Shown here: positions 10,723 through 56,641 of the stretch, piece after piece
How positions within the stretch are numbered: the first letter of the stretch is position 1
Layout: each line of letters opens with the position of its first letter
Source of the DNA: Thermodesulfobacteriota bacterium
GTDB lineage: Bacteria > Desulfobacterota > Desulfobacteria > Desulfobacterales > SURF-7
NCBI GenBank assembly: GCA_049320885.1
Contig: JBMORA010000001.1
Location: 210,622 to 274,621, forward strand
Length of the DNA stretch: 64,000 nt
Reading direction: 5' to 3'
The notes under the pieces: model-generated
What the model was told of the DNA's origin: nothing
The model's database searches: none
The model's input: the letters and a program-made list of their open reading frames with translations, nothing else
Translations under genes and position numbers: made by a program

Positions 10723-15647
<4,925 letters not shown>

Positions 15648-27222: not shown

Positions 27223-29502
27223 GTGATGAGTTTTTCGATTCTGGACACGATCGGCCGGACACCGCTGATCGAAATCAAACGTTTGAACCCCAACCCGAAG
27301 GTTCGGATTCTGGCCAAGCTGGAGTATGTCAACCCCGGCGGTTCCATCAAGGATCGGGCCGCGCTTTACATGATCAACGCAGGAGAAGCCTCCGGCGAAC
27401 TCACCCCTGACAAAACGGTTCTCGAAGCCACCAGCGGCAATACCGGCATCGGTCTCGCCCTGGTCTGCGCGGTCAAAGGCTACCGGCTGTTGCTGGCCAT
27501 GTCCGAAGCCGTCAGCCAGGAACGGCAAAAAATATTGAAGGCCAGGGGAGCGGACATCCTCCTGACACCGGGCCATCTGGGCACCGACGGCGCCATTGAG
27601 GAGGTGTACCGTCTGGCGCGGGAAAACCCCAAGGCCTATTTCATGACGGACCAATTCAACAATCCGGCCAACTGGCAGGCGCATTACGAAGGCACGGGGC
27701 CGGAAATCTGGGAGCAGACCAACGGCACCATCACCACCCTGGTGGCCACCATGGGAACCACCGGAACCCTCATGGGACTTTCCCGCCGCTTGAAGGAATA
27801 TAACCCGGATATCACCATCGTCGGTGTGGAGCCGTATCTGGGGCATAAACTTCAGGGCCTCAAAAATATGAAGGAAGCCTACCGTCCTGGAATTTTTGAA
27901 AAAAAACGACTCGACAAGAATCCGCATATCGATGATGAGGAAGCCTTTGAGATGACCCGGAGGCTGGCCAGGGAGGAAGGCCTTTTCGTGGGCATGAGCA
28001 GTGGAGCCGCCATGGTGCTGGCGGCCAAGGAAGCCGAGGCCATGACGGAAGGGACCATCGTCGTCATGTTTCCGGACAGCGGGGAACGCTATTTGAGCAC
28101 TTCGCTTTTCACCGTGCGGGAACAAGTGGAATTGACCTTGTTCAACACCATGACCCGCACCAAGGAAATCTTCGTTCCGGCCATACCGGGCAAGGTCTCC
28201 ATGTACACCTGCGGTCCCACGGCCCACGCCCCGATTCATATCGGCGAATGCCGCCGTTTCGTTTTTTCCGACCTTCTATCCCGCTATCTGGATTTTCGGG
28301 GTTACGAAGTGCGGCACATCATGAACATCACCGATCTGGACGATAAAACCATCCAGGGATCCGAAAAAGCCGGCGAGGGGCTCACCGATTTCACGGAAAA
28401 ACACATCCGCCGGTTTGACCAGGATCTGGCCGAGCTGAATGTCAAGCCAGCGGATGAATATCCCAGGGCCAGTCGTCATCTGGAAGATATGGTGGCCCTG
28501 GCCGGGAAGCTGGTTGAAAAGGGATATGCGTATGAAAAACTGCGTTCCCTGTATTTCAATATTTCCCGTTATTCGGATTACGGACGCTTGTCGCACATCG
28601 ATATTAATAAGGTGAGACTGGGCGCGACGGTGGATCTGGATGAATATGAAAAAGACAACCCCAGGGATTTCACGCTGTTCAAACGATCCAAGCTTTCGGA
28701 GCTGAAACGCGGTATCTACGTGAAATCGGACTGGGGAAACGTCCGACCCTCCTGGCATATCCAATGCGCGGCCATGTCCATGAAATACCTTGGGGAAAGC
28801 TTCGACATCCATACCAGCGCCCAGGAACTCATTTTCCCCCATCATGAAAACGTGCTGGCCACCGCCAGGGCTGTCACCGGGAAGCCCCTGGCCCGTTATT
28901 GGATCCACAGCGAGAGAATCCTGGTGGACGGTAAGAAGGTGGATGAAAAAGGGACTCGCCCGACACTGGACAATATCCGTCAGATGGGCTATACCGGCCG
29001 GGAAATCCGGTACTGGCTGCTTTCCAGCCACTACCGCAAACCCCTGATCTTCTCTCTCGACCGGCTGGAGGGCGCCCGGCAGGCGTTGAAACGTCTCGAC
29101 ACCTGCGTGCGGCGGCTGTTTGCGGTGCAGGCGGGAAAGTCCGTGACCGAATTGGATCAGCTGCGCTATGATATCAAACAGGGATTTGTCAGCGCCATGG
29201 ATGACGATCTGAACACCTCGGCGGCGCTGGCGGCTCTTTTTAAAAATATACGCAAAATCAATTTATTGCTGCAGAACGGTCACATCAACGCCCCCGATGC
29301 GGAAAAAATCATCGAAACATTTCGCGGCATCGACGAGGTACTGAAAATTTTCGATTTCAGCAACATGTATGCGGATTCGGAAATTCAGCGGATGCTCCAG
29401 GCCAGGGACAAAGCCCGCCTGGAAAAAAACTGGCAACTGGCCGATAAAATCCGCCAATCCCTGATCGAACACGGCATTGCCGTGCACGACACCAAAAGCT
29501 GA
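27223..29502 (+). CDS. cysS: Cysteine synthase (CysK/CysM) fused to cysteinyl-tRNA synthetase
   Basis: N-term NPGGSIKDR, EATSGNTG, GTTGT, GMSSGA, DSGERYLST. C-term YTCGPT, HIGE, NITDLDDK, RPSWHIQC, FPHHEN, HYRKPL. Confidence 0.88.
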   Translation: MMSFSILDTIGRTPLIEIKRLNPNPKVRILAKLEYVNPGGSIKDRAALYMINAGEASGELTPDKTVLEATSGNTGIGLALVCAVKGYRLLLAMSEAVSQERQKILKARGADILLTPGHLGTDGAIEEVYRLARENPKAYFMTDQFNNPANWQAHYEGTGPEIWEQTNGTITTLVATMGTTGTLMGLSRRLKEYNPDITIVGVEPYLGHKLQGLKNMKEAYRPGIFEKKRLDKNPHIDDEEAFEMTRRLAREEGLFVGMSSGAAMVLAAKEAEAMTEGTIVVMFPDSGERYLSTSLFTVREQVELTLFNTMTRTKEIFVPAIPGKVSMYTCGPTAHAPIHIGECRRFVFSDLLSRYLDFRGYEVRHIMNITDLDDKTIQGSEKAGEGLTDFTEKHIRRFDQDLAELNVKPADEYPRASRHLEDMVALAGKLVEKGYAYEKLRSLYFNISRYSDYGRLSHIDINKVRLGATVDLDEYEKDNPRDFTLFKRSKLSELKRGIYVKSDWGNVRPSWHIQCAAMSMKYLGESFDIHTSAQELIFPHHENVLATARAVTGKPLARYWIHSERILVDGKKVDEKGTRPTLDNIRQMGYTGREIRYWLLSSHYRKPLIFSLDRLEGARQALKRLDTCVRRLFAVQAGKSVTELDQLRYDIKQGFVSAMDDDLNTSAALAALFKNIRKINLLLQNGHINAPDAEKIIETFRGIDEVLKIFDFSNMYADSEIQRMLQARDKARLEKNWQLADKIRQSLIEHGIAVHDTKS

Positions 29503-41450: not shown

Positions 41451-42220
41451 AAATCACCGTCATCCAGACCGATCTTTCCTGGGAAGACAGCCAACGCAAC
41501 CTGGCTGGCATCGGCGAAAAACTCCAAGGCCTTGGTGAGGAAACCCACCTGATCATCCTGCCGGAGATGTTCGCCACGGGATTCAGCATGAACGCGGCGA
41601 GCATCGCCCAGGACATGCAGGGACCCGCGGTCGCCTGGCTCCTGGAGCAGGCCGAAAAATCAAAGGCCGACATCGCCGGCAGCCTTGCCGTTCGGGAAAA
41701 GGGCCGTTTTTTCAACCGGCTGATCTGGGTCAGGCCTAGCGGGGACATCCTGACCTACGACAAGAAACACCTGTTCCGGTATGCCGGTGAAGAAAAGGTT
41801 TACACCGCCGGCGACCGGCTTCTGACGGTGGAATTGAACGGCTGGCGGATCCGGCCGTTCATCTGCTATGATCTGCGCTTTCCCTGCTGGTGCCGCAACT
41901 GGAACAAGGCCTACGACCTGGCCGTTTATGTCGCCAATTGGCCGGCCAAACGCGCTGCCCATTGGAAAGCGTTGCTGCCGGCCAGGGCCATCGAAAACCA
42001 GTGTTACGTAGCAGGCGTAAACCGGGTGGGAACGGACGGCAACGGGATGACTTACAGCGGCGACAGCGCCGTGATCGATCCCCTGGGAACCACCCTGTTT
42101 CAGAAAAGCAGCCTGGAATCCGTTCAAACAGTGGAACTTTCCTTGGCGCTGCTGCGGGAATACCGGCAACACTTCCCTGCCTGGATGGATGCCGACGATC
42201 CCGCACCCGCAGCTACATGA
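41438..42220 (+). CDS. yafV: Omega-amidase (YafV/Nit2-like, nitrilase superfamily)
   Basis: LPEMF, YDKKHLF, ICYDLRFP, ARAIENQ. Confidence 0.85.
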   Translation: MRNLKITVIQTDLSWEDSQRNLAGIGEKLQGLGEETHLIILPEMFATGFSMNAASIAQDMQGPAVAWLLEQAEKSKADIAGSLAVREKGRFFNRLIWVRPSGDILTYDKKHLFRYAGEEKVYTAGDRLLTVELNGWRIRPFICYDLRFPCWCRNWNKAYDLAVYVANWPAKRAAHWKALLPARAIENQCYVAGVNRVGTDGNGMTYSGDSAVIDPLGTTLFQKSSLESVQTVELSLALLREYRQHFPAWMDADDPAPAAT

Positions 42221-44459
42221 AACTCTGAATATTGGCCAACCGTTTGGCCAGGTAGGACAACTCGCGCTGGGCGGCTGTCAGATATTCCCGATAGTCCCCC
42301 TTGCTTTCCGGGTTGAAGGAAGTCGATACGCAGGCAAAACGGATCTCGAAAGGCATCTCCTTGACAAGGAACTCGCGATCTTTCAGGAGGGAGGTGATCC
42401 GTGCCAGCGAAGTCCTGGAGTCGTCTTTGGACGTCATGGGTTGAATGACGATCAGCAGGCGGCTGTCGACGATCCCCACGATATCGGTGTCCCGCACGAT
42501 CTTCACCAGGTCTTCCATCACCGCGGAGGTGACATCCTCGCGCGAGATCGAACCCTGGGGCACGGCCTTTTTCGGCGTGACTTTCACGGGTGTCAGCACC
42601 AGGGTTGAAAAAGGCGTATGATACCGTTTTGCGCGGCGGATTTCGCTGTCCAGGATGAACAGGGTGCTGCCCTTGTTCAAGGTCCGTTTGGGGACGCTCT
42701 TCTCCTCGGTTTTCGCCTCCGGCGCGGCAACCATCTCCCGCCGCAATTGCTCGAAACGGTCTTCGGACATCCCCCGTTCCAGCATGGCCTTCTTCACATA
42801 TCCCAGGATGGCGTTGACTTCTTCTTCGGACGCCGCCTCGACACTCAAAATATTGCGGATAGCGGCTTTGCTGTCGGCCGTGTTTTCCCCGGAACGGAGT
42901 TTTCGAAGAACCAACTCGGATTTGAGCTGGCGCATGTTTTCCTCCAGCCGGGCCATGATCCGATATTCGATATCCTTCAGCATCGCGGCATCCAGTTGTT
43001 TGTTTTTCAAGGCTCCGATCAGGTCGTTTCTGGCTTTCGCGTACATGCCGTCCAGCTGTTTGCCTTCGGTTCCGGTTTCGGAGTCGGCTTCATCCAATGC
43101 CATGCGGCTGCCGACGGTTTCGATATACTCCACCAGAATTCCGGTCAACTCGCCCCGGTCGCCTCCGCCCCTCCGGATTTCCGAGGCCAGATAAATCAAT
43201 TCAGCCGCCTCCTTCGGATGTTCCAGGATTTCATGAATCAGGATGTCGCCTTCCAGTCCGATCTCCCTGGCGCTCTGATCCAGCATCCGGGATAGGTTGT
43301 CGCTCTGCAATTCCGCTTTCAATTCCTGGATCAGGTTATAGAAATCCGCTAGGGGCATGCCCTCGGTCATCAGCCCGTGGCGGATTTTCGGCAACAACCG
43401 CCGGAGTTCATCCGCTTCCGGAATCAGCCGCACGATAATCTGGGCCAGACGTCTGATGGGAACCTCGCCTTTCCGGTATTCCTCCTGGACGAGTCGGATC
43501 AACACCGAATCCGTCAGTTCGTCGATTTCCTTTCGGATATCGTTTTCGAATGGATAGACGGTTCCCAGCGCCTTCTGGGCCTCCAGACCTTTCAGCAGCC
43601 GGCCCTTCAGCTCCATCACCCCCTCGGCAAGTCGCTTCAGATCGACATCCGCGTCGCCGCCGCGACCCACCTTATTGCGAATGGATTGGATCTGGCGGAT
43701 GATCATGGGGCCGGGCGTCTGCCCCTTACCCCGATGTTGTTCGGCAAACGCCACATCCGCCCGGATCATCTCCGCGGATATGACTCCCGGATCTTCCAGC
43801 AGGGCGGCAATGGAAAATTGGTTCTCAAAAGACTCGGAAATCGCCTCCGCCATCATCATTCCCAGCACATCCTCCGTGGTGGGGCCGGTCACCTTCGCGC
43901 GCAGGTCAACCACTTCCCCCTGAACCATCCCGCCGATCCGGTTCCCACCCGACGGAATATCACCGTCCAATGCCGATAGCTGCTGCTGTAAACGCTCCCG
44001 CAAAACGACTTCTTCGTCCAGGGTAATTTTTTTAAAAATCACATAATTGATGGTGGCACTGGCGACCCCTTTTGTTTCCAGTGCTTTTTTCATGCTCTTT
44101 ACATCGGGGGTTCTTTTCGTATCGAATACAATCTCCACCAGTGTCTGCAATTCCTCCAGGGTCATCCGCCGCTCGAAGGAAATGGACTGAATTCCGGCCT
44201 TGACGAAATAATCCGCCAGACGCGCTGTATTGATATGATAATCGACGGGTTCGTCTTCGATGAAAAACTTCTCCTGATTCATGGAAAAAATGATGGGCGA
44301 CACTTTTTTGAATCCCTCCTTGAGGGCCTCGAAAAGCTGCTCCACCGACCGGACCACCGCCGGATGTCCGGGATGATACATGGCCGCCTGGTTATATACC
44401 AGATTCATGCTTCGGCCGATCTTATCGGCCGCCAGTTTGCTCAGTTCCGGTTGTTTCAT
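42213..44459 (-). CDS. Large helical protein with C-terminal degenerate GGDEF-like domain
   Basis: C-term SEIRRAKRYHTPFSTLVL...VRDTDIVGIV. GGDEF motif replaced by DSRLL. RBS AAGGAG. Confidence 0.65.
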   Translation of the reverse strand: MKQPELSKLAADKIGRSMNLVYNQAAMYHPGHPAVVRSVEQLFEALKEGFKKVSPIIFSMNQEKFFIEDEPVDYHINTARLADYFVKAGIQSISFERRMTLEELQTLVEIVFDTKRTPDVKSMKKALETKGVASATINYVIFKKITLDEEVVLRERLQQQLSALDGDIPSGGNRIGGMVQGEVVDLRAKVTGPTTEDVLGMMMAEAISESFENQFSIAALLEDPGVISAEMIRADVAFAEQHRGKGQTPGPMIIRQIQSIRNKVGRGGDADVDLKRLAEGVMELKGRLLKGLEAQKALGTVYPFENDIRKEIDELTDSVLIRLVQEEYRKGEVPIRRLAQIIVRLIPEADELRRLLPKIRHGLMTEGMPLADFYNLIQELKAELQSDNLSRMLDQSAREIGLEGDILIHEILEHPKEAAELIYLASEIRRGGGDRGELTGILVEYIETVGSRMALDEADSETGTEGKQLDGMYAKARNDLIGALKNKQLDAAMLKDIEYRIMARLEENMRQLKSELVLRKLRSGENTADSKAAIRNILSVEAASEEEVNAILGYVKKAMLERGMSEDRFEQLRREMVAAPEAKTEEKSVPKRTLNKGSTLFILDSEIRRAKRYHTPFSTLVLTPVKVTPKKAVPQGSISREDVTSAVMEDLVKIVRDTDIVGIVDSRLLIVIQPMTSKDDSRTSLARITSLLKDREFLVKEMPFEIRFACVSTSFNPESKGDYREYLTAAQRELSYLAKRLANIQSFM

Positions 44460-46316: not shown

Positions 46317-47147
46317 ATGCCCCCTGAAGAAACCGCCATTGATGTCTGGATGCAGCATCCGAATCTGGATTTCATCAACCATGCCATGTTCGCCTCCCTG
46401 CGAAGGTGGATGGGCATGACGACGGTGACGGAACCGATCCCCGTGGAGTGGACCCTCGCGGCCATGGATCAGGGCCGGGTGGGAAGGGGTCTGATCAGCG
46501 CCTGGTGGGGTCCCCAGGGGCCGTTGATTGCCAACGAGGAAGTCGCCGGGCTGGTGGAACGGCATCCGGACCGCTTCATCGGCATCGGCGCGGTGGATCT
46601 GCACCGGCCCATGGCGGCGGTCCGGGAAACCCGCCGCTGCATCCGGGAGCTGGGTTTCAAGGGCATCCGCATTGTCCAGTGGTTCTGGAACCTGCCGCCC
46701 ACGGACCGGCTGTACTACCCGGTGTACGCGGAATGCGCGGCCCTGGAGGTGCCGGTCTGCCTGCAGGTGGGCCACACCGGCCCCCTCTGTCCGTCGGAGC
46801 CGGGCCGGCCCATTCCCTATATCGACCAGGTGGCCCTGGATTTCCCGGAGCTCAAATTGGTCTGCGGCCATATCGGCTATCCCTGGACCACGGAAATGAT
46901 CGCCGTGGCCACCAAACATCCCAATGTATTCATCGACACCTCGGCCTACACGGCCAGACGCTACCCCGGCGAGCTGGTGGAATACATGAAACGGAACGGT
47001 CGCAACAAGGTCCTCTTCGGCACCAACTACCCCATGATCACCCCGGCCAAATGCCGGGAGGATCTGGGCTCCCTCGGCCTGGACGACGAAACCTTGGCCT
47101 TGTTCCTGAGCGGCAACGCGGAACGGGTTTTTGCCATCGCCGATTAA
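46317..47147 (+). CDS. Amidohydrolase-2 family metallohydrolase
   Basis: HPDRFIG, YPVYAEC, VGHTG, GHIGYPW, IDTSAY, LFGTNYP, GNAERVF. Confidence 0.85.
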   Translation: MPPEETAIDVWMQHPNLDFINHAMFASLRRWMGMTTVTEPIPVEWTLAAMDQGRVGRGLISAWWGPQGPLIANEEVAGLVERHPDRFIGIGAVDLHRPMAAVRETRRCIRELGFKGIRIVQWFWNLPPTDRLYYPVYAECAALEVPVCLQVGHTGPLCPSEPGRPIPYIDQVALDFPELKLVCGHIGYPWTTEMIAVATKHPNVFIDTSAYTARRYPGELVEYMKRNGRNKVLFGTNYPMITPAKCREDLGSLGLDDETLALFLSGNAERVFAIAD

Positions 47148-49120
47148 TCGATTAAAACCAGCGTTTCATCTTCAAGCCCCTGCATCACCCCGGCGGACAC
47201 GCTGCCCAGCACCAGCCGTTTGATGCCCGAGAGGCCGCGTTTGCCCATGACCACCAGGGAGTATCCGTCCTCCCGGATTTTGCGGAGCAGGGCCGCGGGC
47301 ACGTCCGGGCCGGATTCGATCAGTTCCAGGGCCATGCCGCGCTCCAAACCGAGGATTCGGCCCATCCGTTTCCAGGTGGTGGCCGCCTCCCGGGCTGTTC
47401 CGGACAGCACATGCACGCAATCGAACGCCATTTCCGGACGATGGGCCAGCAGGCGGTCCAGGCATTTGATCACCAACAGGCTGGTGTCCGACAGATCCAG
47501 CAAAACGAGCATGCGGAACGGCTTTTTACCCGGCCCCGCCAGACAGAACACCCGGCCCCTCAGACGGTGCATCAGCCGCTCCTGCCAGACCGCATCCCGG
47601 TTGCGGGCCACCAGAATCATGCCGTAGCCGCCTTGAACCACGGCTTCGAGGATGGCATTCGCCGGGTCGTCGCTGACCAGCATGCATGAATCAGCCACCC
47701 GTGGAACCACAGACGCCTCGGACGACCGGTTGGCGCCAAGCCAGCGTCTGAAGGGTTCTTCCGCCCCGACCAGGCTTTCCGGCTCCGAAGCGTCCGGAAG
47801 AAACATGGCCCGGACATGCCGCACCGGCTCCGGCGCTGCAAGCCAGTCCAGCAGCCTTTGAAAAACGGCCGCGTCCTCCGGCGCCGTGATAGCCCACAGT
47901 TGCCGCGCCGGATTTCGTTTCAGCAATTTGTGTTCCAGATCGGTCCGGTTCCGCCGCCAGGCGGGCCACCTGGCGCAGGCAAAGCCCTGGTCCAGCGTGA
48001 CCCGCTTGAGGCAGCTGCCGCAATCCACGCAGGGCGTTATCCGCAACCCCTGCCGCGCTTTTTCCAACCAGCGGTCATCGGTTCGCAGGGGTCGCCCCAA
48101 TCCGATGAGATCCGTGACGCCGTCATCCAGCAGTTGTTCGGCGGTTGCGGCATCCAGGATCCGGCCGGCCAGGATCACCGGCGTCTTCAAACGTTTTCGC
48201 AATCCGGCCGCATCTTCCCGAAGATAGGCCGGTCTGGACGCCAGCGCCTTGTAGTCGGCGGAAAAATAGGAGTTATAGGATCCCGCGGATACGGACAGGT
48301 AGGCAATCCGCTCCTGCTGCAGCCGGGTTGCCAAGGCAGCGGCCTCGTCCGGTTCGATGCCTTCAGGAACCCATTCCCGGAGCTGGAGTCTGAATCCCAC
48401 GGGAAAGGATTCGGGCAGCCTCTGTTTGACGGCCTGGAGAACCTCCAGGGGGAAACGCAGGCGATCCGGCAAACCGCCTTGGATCGCCGAAGGCCTTGTA
48501 TTGGTAAAAGCCGACAGGAACTGGTTCAATAAATATCCCGAGGCCCCGTGCAATTCCACGCAATCGAAACCGGCCTGCCAGGCCCGCTGGGCCGCCAGGG
48601 CGAAGTCACGGGCGACCCGCCGCATATCGGTTTCTTCCATGCCGGTGGTCCAGCGGTTTACCAGCAACAGCAGACGCTGGGTCAGGGCGAACCGTTTCTC
48701 CAGGGGAAAGGAACGGACAAAGTCGGTCAGCGAGGCGACCTGGAAGGCCAGGTGTTTTCCGGTAACTGGCGTGGGCAGAAGCGGCCGGTCGCCCCGGGCA
48801 AAACGTCCGGCATGATTGAGCTGCAGACACGCCGCGGCTCCTTCCCGGCGGATGGCGCCGGCCAGCTCCCGCAGGCCGTCAATCTGGGCATCCCGATCCA
48901 CCCGCAGGTTATGCAGGGAGGTACACCCGTCTTGCGCGACCGCGGCATTGGCCACCACCACCATGGCGACACCCGTTCCGGCCAGTCGGCGATAATGATC
49001 GATCAACATGCCGCTGACCTGCCCGCCGGGCAAGGCATAACCGGTGAATACCGGAACCGCCACCAGCCGGTTTCTCAGTTCCAGGGAACCGAGTCGAAAT
49101 GGGAGAAACAGCGAGGACAT
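47144..49120 (-). CDS. NADH:flavin oxidoreductase (OYE family) fused to universal stress protein domain(s)
   Basis: LRNRLV, QLNHAGR, AGFDCVELHGASGYLLNQFLS, GRPL, CVDCGSC. C-term VVMGKRGLSGIKRLVLGSVS. Confidence 0.8.
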   Translation of the reverse strand: MSSLFLPFRLGSLELRNRLVAVPVFTGYALPGGQVSGMLIDHYRRLAGTGVAMVVVANAAVAQDGCTSLHNLRVDRDAQIDGLRELAGAIRREGAAACLQLNHAGRFARGDRPLLPTPVTGKHLAFQVASLTDFVRSFPLEKRFALTQRLLLLVNRWTTGMEETDMRRVARDFALAAQRAWQAGFDCVELHGASGYLLNQFLSAFTNTRPSAIQGGLPDRLRFPLEVLQAVKQRLPESFPVGFRLQLREWVPEGIEPDEAAALATRLQQERIAYLSVSAGSYNSYFSADYKALASRPAYLREDAAGLRKRLKTPVILAGRILDAATAEQLLDDGVTDLIGLGRPLRTDDRWLEKARQGLRITPCVDCGSCLKRVTLDQGFACARWPAWRRNRTDLEHKLLKRNPARQLWAITAPEDAAVFQRLLDWLAAPEPVRHVRAMFLPDASEPESLVGAEEPFRRWLGANRSSEASVVPRVADSCMLVSDDPANAILEAVVQGGYGMILVARNRDAVWQERLMHRLRGRVFCLAGPGKKPFRMLVLLDLSDTSLLVIKCLDRLLAHRPEMAFDCVHVLSGTAREAATTWKRMGRILGLERGMALELIESGPDVPAALLRKIREDGYSLVVMGKRGLSGIKRLVLGSVSAGVMQGLEDETLVLID

Positions 49121-50726: not shown

Positions 50727-51818
50727 ATGGTCGACAAAAACAAGAAGCCCCTCAAGAAGGACGCTGCCGAGATGGTCCAGGCATTTGAACAGATTTTGAA
50801 GCAACCGGAGGAAACCTCGGAGCTGAGCCAGAACGCCATCGGCGTGGATATCGGGACTTCGAAAACCGTCTACGCCGTGAATGGTAAAGAGAGCGGAAGC
50901 AAGGATTATTTTTCCCAACTGAACGCCTTCATCGAGGTCCCCTACTCCCGTTTTACTGAAAACATATTGAAACAAAACAAAATCCACCATTACAAACTCG
51001 GGAACTCCCTCATCGTGTACGGTGACGGCGCGGAACTCTTCGCCAACATGCTGAATACCGAAACCCGGCGCCCCATGCGCAACGGCCTCCTGAACGCCAA
51101 GGAAGCCAATGCCATTGAAATCATGAAGGGCATTCTGGACGACATGATCCCCTCCGCCGCCCTGCCCAATACCCCGCTCTGCTTTTCCATCCCCGGAGCG
51201 CCGAAGAATGCCACAACGGATATCATCTATCACGAGGCGATTCTGAAACGCCATCTGGATGAAAAAGGCTTCAAATCCCGAAGCATCAACGAGGGCATGG
51301 CGGTTGTTTTTTCAGAACTGGAAAAGGAGAATTTCACCGGGTTCGGCATCAGCTGCGGCGGCGGGATGTGCAATGTCTGCCTGTCCTATCTCTCCATCCC
51401 GCATATCACCTTCAGCATCATCAAGGGCGGGGATCATATCGACGATGCAGTGGCCTCGGTCACCAATGAGGTCAACACCCGCATCCGGGATATCAAGGAG
51501 AATCAGCTCGATCTGCTGGCGAAGGCGGACAATGAGATCGAGGACGCCCTGCAGATCTATTATGATGATCTCATCCGGACGCTGATCCGCTCCATGAAGG
51601 AGAGTATTGAACAGACGTCGAAGATTCCAAAATCGGATGCCCCCGTCCCGATTGTGCTCAGCGGCGGCACGGCCAAACCGAACGGATTCAGGGAGCGGTT
51701 TGAAAAATGCCTGAAAGAGGTGGACTTCCCGCTGGAAATCAGCGAAATCCGGCTGGCCAAGGACCCGCTGAAAGCCACCGCCAACGGCGCCCTGATCGCC
51801 GCCATGTACGAAGGTTGA
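50727..51818 (+). CDS. Actin-fold ATPase, volactin-like (not MreB/FtsA)
   Basis: Phosphate-1 GVDIGTS, RRPMRNG, FSIP, INEGMAV, phosphate-2 ISCGGGM, GGDHID, adenosine IVLSGGT, ATANGAL. RBS GAGGAGG. Confidence 0.75.
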   Translation: MVDKNKKPLKKDAAEMVQAFEQILKQPEETSELSQNAIGVDIGTSKTVYAVNGKESGSKDYFSQLNAFIEVPYSRFTENILKQNKIHHYKLGNSLIVYGDGAELFANMLNTETRRPMRNGLLNAKEANAIEIMKGILDDMIPSAALPNTPLCFSIPGAPKNATTDIIYHEAILKRHLDEKGFKSRSINEGMAVVFSELEKENFTGFGISCGGGMCNVCLSYLSIPHITFSIIKGGDHIDDAVASVTNEVNTRIRDIKENQLDLLAKADNEIEDALQIYYDDLIRTLIRSMKESIEQTSKIPKSDAPVPIVLSGGTAKPNGFRERFEKCLKEVDFPLEISEIRLAKDPLKATANGALIAAMYEG

Positions 51819-51940
51819 CAAGGATTGACGGACGCGGTTTTTTTCGGCGAAGCGAACGATAATGTCTGCTCCCCGGATTCCGGATTTCATCTGATCGGTA
51901 TCGTGGCGACCGATACGGATTGAAAGGGAGTTTATTGTCC

Positions 51941-53407
51941 ATGATCCAACTCTCCGAACCCGAAAGAATACCGCCGAAGGAGTATCGGCAGCGAATCGAA
52001 AAACTGGCGGAGCAAATCTCCGATCCGGTAAAAAAACTGCGATTCATTCATCAGGCCCTTGCCGACTATTCGCTAAACGAATCCGTTGAAAGCGGGGGAA
52101 AACATCGACGGAAAACGGAAGCGGCAAAAGGCGGGGAGTCCCTGTTTCGCAAAAACGGCAACCACCGGCCGGAGGAAACCGGAGGCGCGGAATACCGGCT
52201 CCAGCCGCCCCTCGCCGGCAAATCCCGCCATTACTTGGTGTATCTGGTCTGCGGCATGGGGGTGATGCTCTTCGGATTTGCCTTTATCCTGTTCCTTTCG
52301 AACGGAAGCCGGTATGGAAACCTTTTCGGTAAAACCGCTGCAAAAACCGAAACCGATGTCTTTCATTATATCATCCCGACGGTGACGTCGGAATTGTCCC
52401 CGGCGCCGGTTTTTCCCAAAGCCTTGCCGGGAGAGGATGCGCAGAAGCCGCCGGCATTCCCCGAATACCTGGACACCCTGATCTGGATGATCGAAAAGAC
52501 AGCCGAAAGCGAGTATTACAGCAACCGGTTGCGGATCCACACCGGCCAAACCGTCGACAACACCCCCCGGCGCTACCGCCGGATTCCGATCCAGGCCGCT
52601 TCCAGCCCGAATGACTGGCCGGCCACCGGCAACGTGGCCGGCATTCTGTTCCATGCCGCGGAAAGCGACATCTATGAGTTCAAGCCGGAAATGACGCAAT
52701 CCATCAAGGAATACAGCCGTCTGCTGGCCCGGTATCTCCGGAAAAAAAAAGCCTATCACTATTTTATCGACCGGTTCGGCGAGGTCTACCGCTTGGTCCG
52801 CGAGGATCATGCCGCCTATCACGCGGGAAATTCGATCTGGGCCGATTCGGAAAACATTTACCTGGATTTAAACAATGCCTTCATCGGGATCTGTTTCGAA
52901 GGCAAGGATTTCGAGCACAACCCCAAGGGAAAGTCGAAAACCGGCGGGAACGGCGACTCGACTCACATCGTTGCCATGGCGCAATCCTCCATCAATGAGG
53001 CCCAGTTGCGGTCGGGAAAGGAGCTGACCGACTGGTTGCGGGTGAAATACCGCATTTCGCAGAAAAACTGCGTGCCCCACGCCCTGGCATCGGTGAACCC
53101 ATACGATCTGCTGATCGGACATCATCTGGACTTGTCATATGAGTTCCCGTTTGATATGTTTGGGTTGAGCAACAAATATGAAGAACCGATTCCTGCCATT
53201 ACCGAATTCGGGTTTTCCTGTAACAACTATTTTGTCCAGGTCATGAAGGGGAGGCTCTGGCCCGGCATTATCCGTTCCGAGGAAACCCTTCGGCAGCGCG
53301 CCGATGAAACAAAAATACCGCTCAAGGAATATCGAAAACTCCTGAACAACCGGTTCGCCGGATTGTTCAAATGGCAAAAACAGATCAAACAATCCGAAGG
53401 GTCCTGA
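51941..53407 (+). CDS. Membrane-anchored N-acetylmuramoyl-L-alanine amidase (Amidase_2/PGRP-like)
   Basis: TM (YLVYLVCGMGVMLFGFAFILFL), ILFHAAES, YHYFIDRFG, AYHAG, IGICFE, VPH, HLD. Confidence 0.78.
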   Translation: MIQLSEPERIPPKEYRQRIEKLAEQISDPVKKLRFIHQALADYSLNESVESGGKHRRKTEAAKGGESLFRKNGNHRPEETGGAEYRLQPPLAGKSRHYLVYLVCGMGVMLFGFAFILFLSNGSRYGNLFGKTAAKTETDVFHYIIPTVTSELSPAPVFPKALPGEDAQKPPAFPEYLDTLIWMIEKTAESEYYSNRLRIHTGQTVDNTPRRYRRIPIQAASSPNDWPATGNVAGILFHAAESDIYEFKPEMTQSIKEYSRLLARYLRKKKAYHYFIDRFGEVYRLVREDHAAYHAGNSIWADSENIYLDLNNAFIGICFEGKDFEHNPKGKSKTGGNGDSTHIVAMAQSSINEAQLRSGKELTDWLRVKYRISQKNCVPHALASVNPYDLLIGHHLDLSYEFPFDMFGLSNKYEEPIPAITEFGFSCNNYFVQVMKGRLWPGIIRSEETLRQRADETKIPLKEYRKLLNNRFAGLFKWQKQIKQSEGS

Positions 53408-53498
53408 AACCGATCGGGCAGGACGCCGTCACCGTCTCCCTGAACCGGAGATTCCGCCACGCCTGACCGAATCGAGAAAAAAATGGAGCCATACGTGC

Positions 53499-54452
53499 AT
53501 GAAGACGCTCAAAAGGAATTGCCCGCATTGCCAGAGTGAAAAAACCGCCCCCATCCCCCAAACATCCGTCGCCAGACTCATCGGTTACTTGGTACCCCGC
53601 CGACCCTATTTATGCCTGGATTGCCGGAAGCGTTTCAACCAGTATGAAAATCCGCTGAAAACCGTATCCGCCAAAATCATGGCCGGCGCCGCAGCCGTTC
53701 TGCTCCTGTTGATCCTTTTCCTTGTGATGCGGCCCCAAACCCCGCAACCGCAGCCGGAAGAACAGGCCCCCTCCATGAGAATCCCCGCCAAGCAGGCGGA
53801 ACCGGAAGCCATGCAAATCCCCAAAATGCCGTTGGAGGAAAAGGGTGCGCCCTTGCCTTCCGGAGAAACGGCCGAGGCCTTGCCGAACCCGAATCAGCCG
53901 GAAGCGGTTCCCGTTCCAACGGCAGATCAGCCGCTGCCCGCCGAAACCGCCCCCCCGGCAAAGGCCCCGGCATTGGAACAGCAGCAGCCGGTCGCCCCAA
54001 CGGCGGAAACACCCGTGAAACAACTGCCGGAGGGACCCCGGCCGATTCCGGCCGCGGTGACTCCCGGAACGGAGTCCACACCCGGTGACAGAAGGGAACG
54101 CGTGACGGCTTCCCCCCATGCGAACCAGCCAAGAACCCTGAAACGCATTTCCGTCCAAAATACCGATAACGGTCCGACCATCCATATCCAGGCGGACGGT
54201 CCCATCGATGCCCATCAATCCTTCTTGCTCCCCGACCCGCATAGACTGGTCATCGACCTTGCGGGGAAATGGGAAAAACCCGGATTTTACGCCATGGCGG
54301 TGGAACACGATCTCATCCGGTCGGTCCGGGTATGGAAACATGATAAAAAGCTGCGGATCGTCTGCGATCTGCAATCCGGCCTGGGGCGGGAACCGGTTTT
54401 TAAAACAGCTTCCGACGGCTTGGTCGCCGAGTTGGGCGCAACGCCCCCCTGA
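53499..54452 (+). CDS. Zn-ribbon / TM / Pro-rich linker / AMIN-domain protein
   Basis: CPHC...CLDC, hydrophobic helix, P/A/E-rich linker, C-term FLLPDPHRLVIDL...VRV...LRIVCDL (AMIN). Confidence 0.78.
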   Translation: MKTLKRNCPHCQSEKTAPIPQTSVARLIGYLVPRRPYLCLDCRKRFNQYENPLKTVSAKIMAGAAAVLLLLILFLVMRPQTPQPQPEEQAPSMRIPAKQAEPEAMQIPKMPLEEKGAPLPSGETAEALPNPNQPEAVPVPTADQPLPAETAPPAKAPALEQQQPVAPTAETPVKQLPEGPRPIPAAVTPGTESTPGDRRERVTASPHANQPRTLKRISVQNTDNGPTIHIQADGPIDAHQSFLLPDPHRLVIDLAGKWEKPGFYAMAVEHDLIRSVRVWKHDKKLRIVCDLQSGLGREPVFKTASDGLVAELGATPP

Positions 54453-54482
54453 CGTTATCGAAAACGGAAAGGAAACGGATGG

Positions 54483-55577
54483 ATGGTCGAACGAACCGAC
54501 GAAATGGCACCGCGCTTGCCGAAGGTCACCACAAAGTTGAAAATGCCCGGCATGCTCCTGAAGTTACCAGGCGCCGTCAAACTGGCCATCGCCGCGCTGG
54601 TGGTGCTGATGATCGCCTTTAATGCCCTGTTCACCTATGTGCAGCCCAATGAATTCGGCATCAAGGTCGTGCGCATCGGTATCAACCGGGGAGTCCAGAA
54701 GGAAATTTACACGGCCGGTCTGCACTGGGTCATCCCCGGTTTTCAGCAGATCTTCCGCCTGCCGCGGGACATTCAGGTTTTGGAGCTGACAGCGTCGCCG
54801 AAGACCGCTGCCCTGCCGGCCCGGAAGGATCGGGTCGCCCATATTCAGACATCGGACGGTTTTTATGTGGATGTGGATGTTTCCATCCTGTACCGGATCA
54901 ATGACCCCTTTCTCGTGTTCACCAAAATCGGCCCCGGCAGCCTGTATGAGGATAACGGGATTCTGCCGAAGGCGGAGCCCGCTCTCAAGGAAACCTTGGG
55001 CAAATTGACCACCGAAGATTTTTACAACAGCCCCTTGCGGGTGAAGAAGGCACGGGAAGCGCGGGAACTGCTGAATGCGGAACTGAATCCGAAAGGCATC
55101 CAGGTTGAGCAGGTGCTGGTGCGCTATTTCGTTTACAGCCCCGAAATCCAGAAAAACATCGAGGAGAAAAAGCTGAAGGATCAGCTGGTGTTTACGAACC
55201 AGGCCGCGGCCCGGGCCGCCAAGGAAGAGGCGGAATTGAAAAAAGTCATCCAGGAGGGTCTCGTGATGGTGGATGTGGAGCTCGAACAGGGCCGGGCCTA
55301 TGTCACCCGCAAGGAAGCGGAAAAAGATCTGTATGTGCGGACCAAAAAAGCCGAAGCCGACCTGCTGGTGAAACTGGCGGATGCGGAAAAAGTCCGTTTG
55401 AAAAACGATGCCATGAAAGGCGTCGGTTCCGAACGGATGGTGGGCTTAAAAATGGCGGAAGTGTACAAAGGGCTGGATCTCATCGTTCTGCCCAGCGACG
55501 GCAGCGGCGGCGTCAATCCCCTTGATTTGAACAATGCCTTGAACCTATTTGATGTCCGCAAGGGAGATACGCCATGA
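54483..55577 (+). CDS. SPFH/band-7 (prohibitin/HflKC-like) membrane protein
   Basis: TM followed by YVQPNEFGI, GLHWVIP, TSDG..VDVDVSILYRI, and an AEA-rich coiled coil. Confidence 0.85.
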   Translation: MVERTDEMAPRLPKVTTKLKMPGMLLKLPGAVKLAIAALVVLMIAFNALFTYVQPNEFGIKVVRIGINRGVQKEIYTAGLHWVIPGFQQIFRLPRDIQVLELTASPKTAALPARKDRVAHIQTSDGFYVDVDVSILYRINDPFLVFTKIGPGSLYEDNGILPKAEPALKETLGKLTTEDFYNSPLRVKKAREARELLNAELNPKGIQVEQVLVRYFVYSPEIQKNIEEKKLKDQLVFTNQAAARAAKEEAELKKVIQEGLVMVDVELEQGRAYVTRKEAEKDLYVRTKKAEADLLVKLADAEKVRLKNDAMKGVGSERMVGLKMAEVYKGLDLIVLPSDGSGGVNPLDLNNALNLFDVRKGDTP

Positions 55578-56641
55578 AACGCTTCCTGTTCCTTGCCTTC
55601 CCGCTGATCTGCTGTCTCTGCCTGCCGGCTTGCCTGCTGTACAGCACCGGCGAAAACGAAGTGGGCGTACGTACCCGGAAACTGGCCATCTGGGGACCGC
55701 CGGGGGTCGAGGAGCAGGTTTATGCCCCGGGCTCCACCCATGTGTTTCTGCCCTTCATCAATGACTGGCACACCTTCGACACCAAACTGCAGAATCTTGA
55801 AATGGTCTATGAACCGTCACGCGGAGAGCGCCGGACCCATGATGATCTGCTGTTCAAGAGCATCGACGGCAACGATATCGGACTGGACGTCATCATCGCC
55901 TACCGCATCGACGCCGCACAAGCACCTTACATCCTGCAGCATGTGGCCGTCGACAACCACACCCTGCGGGAAAAGATCGTCCGCACCATCGCGCGCAGCA
56001 AACCCCGCGATATCTTCGGCGAGTTGACCACCGAAGAATTTTACGTGGCGGAAAAACGGGAACTGCAGGCCCAGAAAGCCAAGGAAGTGCTCCAGGAGAT
56101 GCTCGGCCCGATGGGGATCATCGTCGAAAAAGTGCTCACCAAGGATTACCGGTTCAATCGCGAATACCAGAAGGCCATCGAGGACAAAAAAGTCGCCGAT
56201 CAGCAGGTGCAGAAAAACAAATCCGCCCGGCATGCGGCCCTGGAGGAATACAAGCGCAAACTGGAGGAAGCCAAGGGCGAGGTGAACAAGATGATCGCCG
56301 ACGCGGACGGCGCCTATCGCAGAGCCAAAATCGAGGCCGATGTATACTACGAGCGGCAGCAGATGATGGCGGAGGCCATCAAGGCGGAAGGAATCGCCGA
56401 AGCCAAAGGCATCCAGGAGATGAACAACGCCCTGGCCGGTTCGGGTGGCGAAGCGCTCGTCAAACTGCGCATCGCCGAGGCCCTTCAGGACAAGAAAATC
56501 ATGCTGCTGCCGGTATCCACCGGGGGGATGAACCTGAAAACAACGGATATCAACCGGCTGATTGAAACCATGGGAATCCGCGCCATGGCCGGAAACGATT
56601 ACAAGCAACGCAGTGTCGAAAAAGCAACCGATACAAGATAA
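55574..56641 (+). CDS. SPFH/band-7 protein, possibly a lipoprotein
   Basis: Signal peptide with LPAC, ENEVGV, SIDG..IGLDVIIAYRI, YQKAIEDK, coiled coil. ATGA overlap with the upstream paralog. Confidence 0.85.
   Translation: MKRFLFLAFPLICCLCLPACLLYSTGENEVGVRTRKLAIWGPPGVEEQVYAPGSTHVFLPFINDWHTFDTKLQNLEMVYEPSRGERRTHDDLLFKSIDGNDIGLDVIIAYRIDAAQAPYILQHVAVDNHTLREKIVRTIARSKPRDIFGELTTEEFYVAEKRELQAQKAKEVLQEMLGPMGIIVEKVLTKDYRFNREYQKAIEDKKVADQQVQKNKSARHAALEEYKRKLEEAKGEVNKMIADADGAYRRAKIEADVYYERQQMMAEAIKAEGIAEAKGIQEMNNALAGSGGEALVKLRIAEALQDKKIMLLPVSTGGMNLKTTDINRLIETMGIRAMAGNDYKQRSVEKATDTR

Follow-up and report, generated by a model that had tools for sequence, protein, structure and literature searches.

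The stretch of DNA considered here, hereafter called the window, comprises 64,000 nucleotides of contig JBMORA010000001.1 from a Thermodesulfobacteriota bacterium of the order Desulfobacterales, whose 5.6 Mb genome is 98% complete. Between positions 50727 and 56641, its + strand carries five co-oriented open reading frames (ORFs) separated by spacers of 122, 91, 30 and -4 bp. They encode an actin of the Volactin family (50727-51818, 363 aa), an Amidase_2 enzyme with a predicted membrane anchor (51941-53407, 488 aa), a protein joining a zinc ribbon to an AMIN domain (53499-54452, 317 aa) and two SPFH proteins that match Pfam Band_7, SPFH1 (54483-55577) and SPFH2 (55574-56641), the second gene overlapping the first. 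The ATG of the actin gene is preceded by GGAGAGGAGGAAGG, a ribosome-binding site, and that of the amidase gene by AAGGGAG. An earlier note on this DNA had proposed that the five genes belong to one system that remodels the cell wall, and its description of them (ORFs, gaps, Pfam domains, single hydrophobic segments and ribbon motif) is right in every particular. Related loci show that the conserved unit comprises only the actin, the Amidase_2 and the zinc-ribbon/transmembrane (TM)/AMIN genes (50727-54452); both SPFH genes are judged to lie outside this module.

The actin matches the Pfam family Volactin (PF25216) over its full length, with 263.3 bits for a cut-off of 35 and profile positions 2-321 out of 321 covered. 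The profile search of the whole genome gives it 264 bits against the same family. It lies under the thresholds of the MreB families (PF06723 MreB_Mbl, 21.1 versus 27; NCBIfam NF010539, 18.4 versus 293) and also under that of MamK (NF040964, 35.8 versus 400), although MamK is still its best NCBIfam match; the Pfam survey of the window detected no mam-type family. A lysine-rich N-terminal extension of ~38 aa precedes the phosphate-1 motif. The phosphate 1, phosphate 2 and adenosine motifs of the nucleotide-binding actin fold are present as GVDIGTSK (D41, G43, T44), SCGGGMCN (G211-213) and LSGGTA (G313-314), respectively. These residues do not vary among 26 actins of clade A, i.e., actins at least 58% identical to that of the window. 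Among solved structures, the nearest ones found by profile search are EutJ, which is the best match, MreB and MamK, with E-values ranging from 8e-4 to 0.02.

Databases hold 2237 relatives of this family at E<=1e-5, labelled “hypothetical protein” or “actin-like ATPase involved in cell morphogenesis”. Among the matches listed, the organism names are bacterial or absent and, therefore, the family is not specifically archaeal-type. The words “archaeal-type” used in the earlier note are thus misleading: PF25216 owes its name to a haloarchaeal member but is widespread in bacteria, being present in 50 of the 401 genomes examined from the order of the window and in 12 of the 401 genomes of a phylum-wide sample. 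Besides a canonical MreB (496 bits), the same genome encodes another MreB-like protein (188 bits) and two Amidase_3 proteins. Since it has this canonical MreB plus the MreB-like gene, the actin module is an addition and not a replacement.

The amidase scores 58.7 bits against Pfam Amidase_2 (cut-off 26). Three parts are predicted along its gene, all on the + strand: a cytoplasmic tail (51941..52234, aa 1-98) with a conserved core at about aa 8-48, a TM helix (52235..52291, aa 99-117 when counted from the ATG at 51941, or 106-124 in the numbering of a longer ORF) and a periplasmic part (52448..53404, aa 170-488). This last part would consist of a beta-rich lead-in specific to the family and an Amidase_2/PGRP core, followed by a helical extension at the C-terminus. 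According to a Kyte-Doolittle scan, all the 23 relatives compared have one hydrophobic segment at a similar place, and 43 of 44 full-length amidases from metagenomes have such a segment at residue ~100-145. Hydropathy, together with the requirement that the Amidase_2 and AMIN domains reach peptidoglycan, suggests a single-pass topology both for the amidase and for the AMIN protein.

The periplasmic part was modelled with AlphaFold2 on 120 sequences (mean pLDDT 88.9). The full-length model, built on 23 sequences, reached a mean pLDDT of 51.4 only and was kept out of the fold search. The best Foldseek matches of the periplasmic model are AmpDh2 (4bpa), AmpD (2y2b), AmiD (3d2z), AmpDh3 and T7 lysozyme, each with a probability of 1.00 and with target-normalised TM-scores of 0.4-0.6. 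Nine residues (H238, E241, D243, Y272, H294, E320, H380, H395 and D397) are invariant both in the 23 amidases and in the 120 sequences. H238 belongs to the motif GILxHxxESD and H380 to the motif CVPH; a partial alignment places H380 in the His region of the amidase 7f5i. With regard to the roles known from AmpD and T7 lysozyme, H238 and H380 presumably occupy the positions of the two zinc histidines of the family. Database relatives are labelled “peptidoglycan recognition family protein” or “N-acetylmuramoyl-L-alanine amidase”.

In the predicted cytoplasmic tail, conservation among the 23 aligned amidases is confined to a block reading LPPxxYRxxIExLAxxIxDPVxKL+F, at about residues 8-48, the remaining tail sequence being variable; P11, K32 and L33 are invariant in this block. 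The same block stands at the head of the consensus derived from 120 database relatives, and DPVxKL+F is visible in the 22 tails inspected from metagenomes, including those of the group in which the order of the amidase and actin genes is reversed. Within the poor full-length model, the tail is predicted to be helical at residues 13-23 and 29-52 (pLDDT ~75). A profile of 60 tail positions, searched against 1.84 billion cluster representatives, retrieved 53 proteins and matched nearly all of them at residues 1-60. Pfam analysis of 23 of the proteins found by this profile revealed Amidase_2 in 14, no domain in eight, which are fragments or forms with a long linker, and Amidase_3 in one (P0262). 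In P0262, the same tail and membrane segment are joined to a domain of non-homologous fold having the same enzymatic activity. This single swap suggests that selection acts on the tail plus “an amidase” and not on one particular catalytic domain. P0262 is an ENA singleton from a 4661-bp contig, and the actin P0080 (58% identity) is an ENA singleton whose contig also measures 4661 bp, so that both are probably encoded by one contig. A metagenome scan with P0262 found nothing.

The association of both genes was followed in the 401 genomes of the order. In the eight loci from named relatives, whose actins are 67-91% identical to that of the window, the amidase gene lies directly downstream in every case. 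The AMIN gene is kept in six of these loci; the contig of L005 ends just past the amidase gene and L007 has a convergent MobB gene. Among the 29 loci returned by the search, all the 20 whose actin reaches at least 58% identity have a downstream amidase match (only the N-terminal part of the amidase fits within the flank in L039 and L040), and the nine whose actins share 40-47% identity have none. These 20 loci, together with G584, G500 and the window, make up the 23 clade-A genomes. In all of them, the amidase gene adjoins the actin gene downstream on the same strand, the adjacency spanning a contig break in G705 and G773 and involving a long or split form in G668. Conversely, when the amidase profile was used as the query, it led to 24 genomes, i.e., the same 23 plus G550. 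Furthermore, a maximum-likelihood tree of 74 actins (quick search) groups the amidase-linked ones with an SH-aLRT support of 100. This group has 27 rows: 23 are labelled with an amidase, three (L068, L040 and L082) correspond to contig ends or to a split form and one is a database sequence. The actin-amidase association, which the earlier note already held to be the surest link of the cluster, is therefore that of a strictly linked pair (23/23 genomes, and 23/24 in reverse), far beyond chance.

A metagenome scan with the actin alignment gave 80 further loci encoding actins 44-64% identical. Their taxa are unlabelled; the named database relatives found at this level of identity are Acidobacteriota. 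The amidase gene abuts the actin gene in 65 of these loci, 63 of which were recognised by the script profiles, whereas L143 and L179 were reassigned from coordinates, an over-long ORF call having overlapped the amidase gene. The order is actin then amidase in 15 loci and amidase then actin, on the same strand, in 50. In this latter arrangement, they are often separated by a few bases or overlap by four (e.g., L146 and L147). In 14 of the 15 loci lacking the amidase, the contig ends less than 900 bp from the actin gene on at least one side. If the count is restricted to loci flanked by 1.5 kb or more on each side, 29 loci are left, and the amidase gene is present in 28 of them. Pfam confirmed Amidase_2 in 8/8 and Volactin in 5/5 of the metagenome proteins tested. 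The linkage is kept despite inverted gene order and divergence, in distant lineages, which argues for function and not for the inheritance of one operon. It provides strong evidence that the actin and the amidase would work as a functional pair. In three metagenome loci, two tandem actins of the Volactin family are encoded right before the amidase (L159, 2141-4244; L171, 1-2060; L196, 4411-6560).

The third gene of the unit encodes, on the + strand, an N-terminal zinc ribbon with four cysteines (nt 53520-53624; C8, C11, C39 and C42, CxxC...CxxC, read from the translation), a TM helix predicted from hydropathy (nt 53673-53729, aa 59-77) and a C-terminal AMIN domain (nt 54147-54377, aa 217-293; PF11741, 32.8 bits versus 20.5). 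The AMIN domain is joined to the helix by a linker rich in Pro, Glu and Ala and, being beyond the single hydrophobic segment, would lie outside the cytoplasm. Homologues of this gene are found at position +2 in seven further loci, with the ribbon in L001, L002 and L063. In the same way, 13 metagenome loci encode, directly upstream of the amidase, one protein each of a sequence cluster with an analogous zinc-ribbon/TM/SPOR organisation. Both members tested with Pfam carry a C-terminal SPOR domain, and the nine members inspected all have a CxxC...CxxC ribbon at their start and one membrane segment (~residue 180-250). The combination of a zinc ribbon, a membrane helix and a domain that binds the wall is therefore recurrent, AMIN being swapped for SPOR. 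The linkage of the AMIN gene, which had been rated less certain than that of the amidase, is better supported than expected, with AMIN in the window and SPOR in distant relatives. Nevertheless, this third partner is frequent and not universal. In L062 and L067, from another family of Desulfobacterales, LysM proteins are encoded on either side of the pair.

Two types of metagenome loci (L161, L166, L177, L188, L189, L193, L194 and L202) display longer runs of genes. One type successively encodes a Crp-like regulator, the zinc-ribbon/SPOR protein, the amidase, the actin, a histidine kinase and a sigma-54 response regulator. The second type has no zinc-ribbon protein, and a TPR/Big_7/AAA_16 protein of ~810 aa and a protein of ~400 aa are encoded behind the actin.

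The last two genes of the run have a different status. SPFH1 and SPFH2 score 102.6 and 79.1 bits against Band_7 and remain under the equivalog cut-offs of HflK/HflC (TIGR01932, 20.9 versus 134.4; TIGR01933, 33.8 versus 159.4); they are generic Band_7 proteins only. The pair adjoins the module only in the window and in L001 (genome G500), both from the same genus. In L002, which belongs to this genus too and whose actin is 89% identical, an MCP gene takes its place. In G584, G649 and G718, SPFH orthologues sharing 68-69% identity are still paired and are found on contigs other than that of the actin. Furthermore, clustering of neighbours in the genome and metagenome loci placed no SPFH gene beside any other actin gene. 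The SPFH pair is thus a separate two-gene unit, which happens to adjoin the module within this genus, and its inclusion in the machine by the earlier note does not hold. The conservation of the neighbourhood, which this note had proposed to check across bacteria, is therefore verified for the actin and the amidase and, recurrently, for the AMIN or SPOR partner, but not for the SPFH genes. SPFH2 has a hydrophobic, cysteine-rich N-terminus, MKRFLFLAFPLICCLCLPAC, which resembles a lipoprotein signal; as judged from their sequences, SPFH1 and SPFH2 may be anchored differently.

The module is surrounded by ordinary chromosomal genes. The divergent upstream genes encode an SDR epimerase and an OYE/Usp protein; a 4Fe-4S protein and a CoA-disulfide reductase are encoded downstream and, farther away, MetRS, LptD, SurE and Tmk. 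The Pfam survey found no mobile-element family, integrase, transposase or phage gene among the proteins of the window, and the five proteins have no PADLOC match. The spacer between the actin and amidase genes folds no better than shuffled sequences (z = 0.41). A consensus scan detected no promoter or terminator in the intergenic spacers of the unit, its sole matches between 50727 and 56641 falling within coding sequences.

Elsewhere in the window, several ORFs have unusual features. On the + strand, a 759-aa ORF (27223-29502) combines a PALP (cysteine-synthase-like) domain with a complete class I cysteinyl-tRNA synthetase. On the - strand, an Old-Yellow-Enzyme-type flavin oxidoreductase (47144-49120) carries a C-terminal Usp domain and has a homologue at the equivalent place in L001. 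The same strand also includes a 1263-aa ORF (10723-14514), whose Pfam matches are SIS and GATase_6 only, and a 748-aa ORF (42213-44459) that adjoins a Ser/Thr kinase gene and has no Pfam match.

A paralogous actin clade has a different linkage. Among the 37 actins outside the amidase-linked clade (38-49% identity), 29 have genes that precede a gene for one of two forms of a same extension, carried by a larger enzyme or free. In 11 cases, the next gene encodes a class A penicillin-binding protein (PBP) of 735-827 aa, with a Transgly domain from ~residue 235, a membrane segment at ~150-200 and a receiver-like cytoplasmic N-terminal extension of ~150-190 aa. In 18 others, it encodes a soluble protein of ~116-220 aa (~143 aa) homologous to this PBP extension. 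Next to this free extension comes a ParA/MinD-like ATPase in 11 loci and, in L025, L029 and L081, a PBP devoid of the extension. The eight remaining actins have other neighbours, HrpA in four cases. The extension of the PBP has no Pfam match; it resembles a receiver, and the Atlas label “response regulatory domain” (score 0.96) is to be taken as a lead only. This actin family thus comprises two clades, each associated with its own wall enzyme, and both enzymes bear a cytoplasmic extension. The alignments of the amidase tail and of the receiver-like extension of the PBP show no likeness to each other. One paralogous locus, L085 (G613:C102, 3276-9572), encodes in tandem an actin, a REC-like protein, a ParA-like protein, an actin and a long PBP; L104 (G523:C91), L025, L029, L081 and L107 are further loci of this clade.

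AMIN domains target proteins to septal peptidoglycan, whereas the ligand of SPOR domains is the denuded glycan that results from amidase action. The partners carrying these domains therefore point to septal or denuded peptidoglycan, i.e., to division, cell separation or local remodelling. In the arrangement that we infer, and that seems reasonably probable from the comparison of loci and sequences, the three genes would encode an actin-guided envelope module in which the tail of the amidase is coupled to the actin across the inner membrane. The actin-fold ATPase would presumably form filaments in the cytoplasm. Through the inner membrane, it would be coupled to the amidase by the conserved tail, whose core is DPVxKL+F, so that the removal of stem peptides from peptidoglycan would be placed, or switched on, only where and when actin assembly takes place. 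The zinc-ribbon protein, with its ribbon in the cytoplasm, would make this assembly depend on a given state of the wall. The site of action could be the division septum, cell separation or another place of local wall remodelling. Such a module is accessory to the canonical MreB and to the AmiC-type amidases of the same genome.

Several observations weigh against this arrangement. On the side of the actin, no solved structure is close, given the E-values mentioned above for EutJ, MreB and MamK, and the present comparisons did not connect it with any relative whose filaments are characterised. The Acidobacteriota actin relatives P0095, P0102 and P0120 (~51-52% identity) are fused to a DNA-binding domain of the HU type (PF00216), and the last of them additionally carries PF18291; this hints at DNA-related roles within the family. 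On the side of the enzyme, the conserved residues make catalytic competence likely rather than proven, because the third zinc ligand, for which D397 and H395 are candidates, is not mapped from the sequence. The linkage itself has exceptions. G550:C30 carries an amidase gene behind a 4Fe-4S gene with no actin gene nearby, in a genome 88% complete and 7% contaminated made of 800 contigs. In L144, the sole informative miss among the metagenome loci, the actin gene lies between a VWA gene and cytochrome-c-assembly/HemA genes. According to the coordinates, the gap between the actin and amidase genes also reaches roughly 430 bp in one family and, therefore, co-transcription is not assured everywhere. 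Lastly, the third gene is missing at L007 and in most other families of Desulfobacterales, and four of the eight homologues of the AMIN gene lack the ribbon (L003, L004, L006 and L008), in which only a short N-terminus and a membrane segment precede AMIN.

Alternatively, the actin-fold protein could be an ATP-driven switch controlling the amidase via its tail by a conformational change, with neither filament nor positioning; FtsA and the FtsEX ATPase offer comparisons for such a switch. The linkage and the conservation of the tail fit this scheme as well. Furthermore, the actin fold includes ATPases that do not polymerise, the best solved match being precisely EutJ, and both the histidine kinase and sigma-54 response regulator of some loci and the receiver-like domain of the paralogous clade suggest regulation. 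However, the volactin of H. volcanii makes dynamic filaments in vivo, according to sections of the paper describing it (PMC10869688), and tandem actins, such as those of L159, L171 and L196, are often found in filament systems. We consider such a switch rather unlikely. It is quite improbable that the neighbours are unrelated, the actin having a cytoplasmic task, e.g., positioning DNA or an organelle, and the amidase being an ordinary periplasmic AmpDh-like enzyme of recycling or autolysis. The HU-fused relatives and the exceptions G550:C30 and L144 would agree with it, but the genes co-occur in both directions of search and are adjacent, in two gene orders, in nearly all the well-flanked metagenome loci; moreover, a purely periplasmic enzyme would not need a conserved cytoplasmic tail.

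Another possibility is that all five genes form one machine, a microdomain or cage of SPFH proteins housing the actin-guided amidase. The SPFH genes do begin 30 bp past the AMIN gene and are co-oriented with it, the scan called no terminator-like site in this interval, and L001 shows the same arrangement. Nevertheless, as L001 is from the same genus, L002 has the MCP gene instead and the orthologues lie on other contigs in three genomes, such a machine is very improbable. As for a mobile cassette for lysis or partition derived from a phage, or a system of anti-phage defence, hardly any credence can be given to it. The spread of the family is patchy, as seen from its counts in the order and in the phylum sample, and Amidase_2 is common in endolysins, several of which are among the fold matches; but neither PADLOC nor the Pfam survey of this window, which shows housekeeping genes, brought any sign of such an element, and the pair remains chromosomal with flanks that differ among loci.

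Coming back to the actin-guided module, the paralogous clade allows a wider and more tentative proposal. Actins of the Volactin family might constitute a second widespread bacterial cytoskeleton directing the wall, distinct from MreB and FtsA. Its paralogous clades would each be dedicated to one peptidoglycan enzyme (amidase or class A PBP), captured via the cytoplasmic N-terminal domain of this enzyme, and the zinc-ribbon/TM/AMIN-or-SPOR proteins would act as readers of the wall state. We hold this for possible, though somewhat doubtful.

Several known systems can be compared with this module. In the Rod complex, single-pass adaptors with a small cytoplasmic domain, such as RodZ, link the bacterial actin MreB with enzymes of the wall. 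However, the actin of the window is under the MreB thresholds and the MreB of this genome lies elsewhere; moreover, its partner is a hydrolase instead of RodA/PBP2, and the adaptor domain is a zinc ribbon, whereas that of RodZ is a helix-turn-helix. AmpDh2, AmpDh3 and AmiD, which give the best fold matches and belong to the same Pfam family as the amidase, occur in the periplasm as lipoproteins or in soluble form and are not known to have a cytoplasmic tail. The amidase described here adds to them the tail, the TM helix, the beta-rich lead-in and the helical C-terminal extension.

The closest parallels, by analogy and not by homology, are found with bactofilins. Sections of two papers describe the bactofilin BacA together with the single-pass M23 endopeptidase LmdC in Hyphomonas and Rhodospirillum (PMC10945521) and with the class A PBP PbpC in Caulobacter (PMC12448750), the cytoplasmic tail of the enzyme binding the polymer, and thereby determining recruitment, in both cases. 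As in the module of the window, a polymer gene adjoins the gene of a single-pass wall enzyme that has a conserved N-terminal tail. In addition, the amidase-linked and the class A PBP-linked actin clades parallel LmdC and PbpC, respectively. The polymer differs, since the actin has an ATP-binding fold whereas bactofilin is nucleotide-free. The enzyme differs too, as it is an amidase and not an M23 peptidase, with a tail of ~50 aa predicted to be helical, whereas that of LmdC is a beta-hairpin. By analogy, a binding between actin and tail of the same type as in BacA-LmdC and BacA-PbpC would be the simplest account of the data.

Among actins, VolA (HVO_2015) from Haloferax volcanii, whose filaments were mentioned above, belongs to the same family PF25216 and affects the change from rod to disk, as stated in sections of the paper devoted to it (PMC10869688). 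Haloferax has no peptidoglycan, so that its partners and target differ from those proposed here. In the sections considered, the main text of this paper leaves bacterial relatives untreated (PMC10869688). Two other actins resemble that of the window by description only, as this latter has an extension of ~38 aa and MamK as its best NCBIfam match. BeeR, from Verrucomicrobiota such as O. terrae, is MamK-like, has a disordered N-terminal extension of 30-50 aa and polymerises with ATP, according to the part of the report that describes it (PMC11929497). In the same way, passages of another report present Bbp (“big bacteria protein”) as a MamK-like actin occurring in Desulfobacterota (PMC10580974). 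Both are from non-magnetotactic bacteria and, in these same passages, their authors state that their function is unknown (PMC11929497, PMC10580974). The Bbp cluster of Ca. Electrothrix gigas, as described there, encodes the actin, a hypothetical protein and a Kelch-like protein (PMC10580974); unlike the locus of the window, it is not an amidase cluster. In passages on Mad28, from magnetotactic Desulfobacterota, no link with the present actin was found.

A full-text search of open-access papers and preprints found no paper linking PF25216 actins to an amidase or a PBP, and the papers listed for volactin deal with archaea or are general. The principle of coupling a cytoskeleton to the wall is known, and the players are new. 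The spatial placement of wall hydrolysis is understood mainly for the divisome, where FtsEX/EnvC/NlpD act with amidases, and lately for bactofilin and LmdC. If the arrangement proposed here is true, an actin other than MreB or FtsA would be tied to a tail-anchored amidase, and the cytoskeleton would thus act on the wall by a route not described before. The binding of the ~50-residue tail motif to the actin makes a concrete and cheap hypothesis. Should BeeR and Bbp also prove to be kin of this actin, the module would give the first functional lead for orphan bacterial actins, and a role could then be assigned to bacterial actins whose filaments are solved while their function is unknown.

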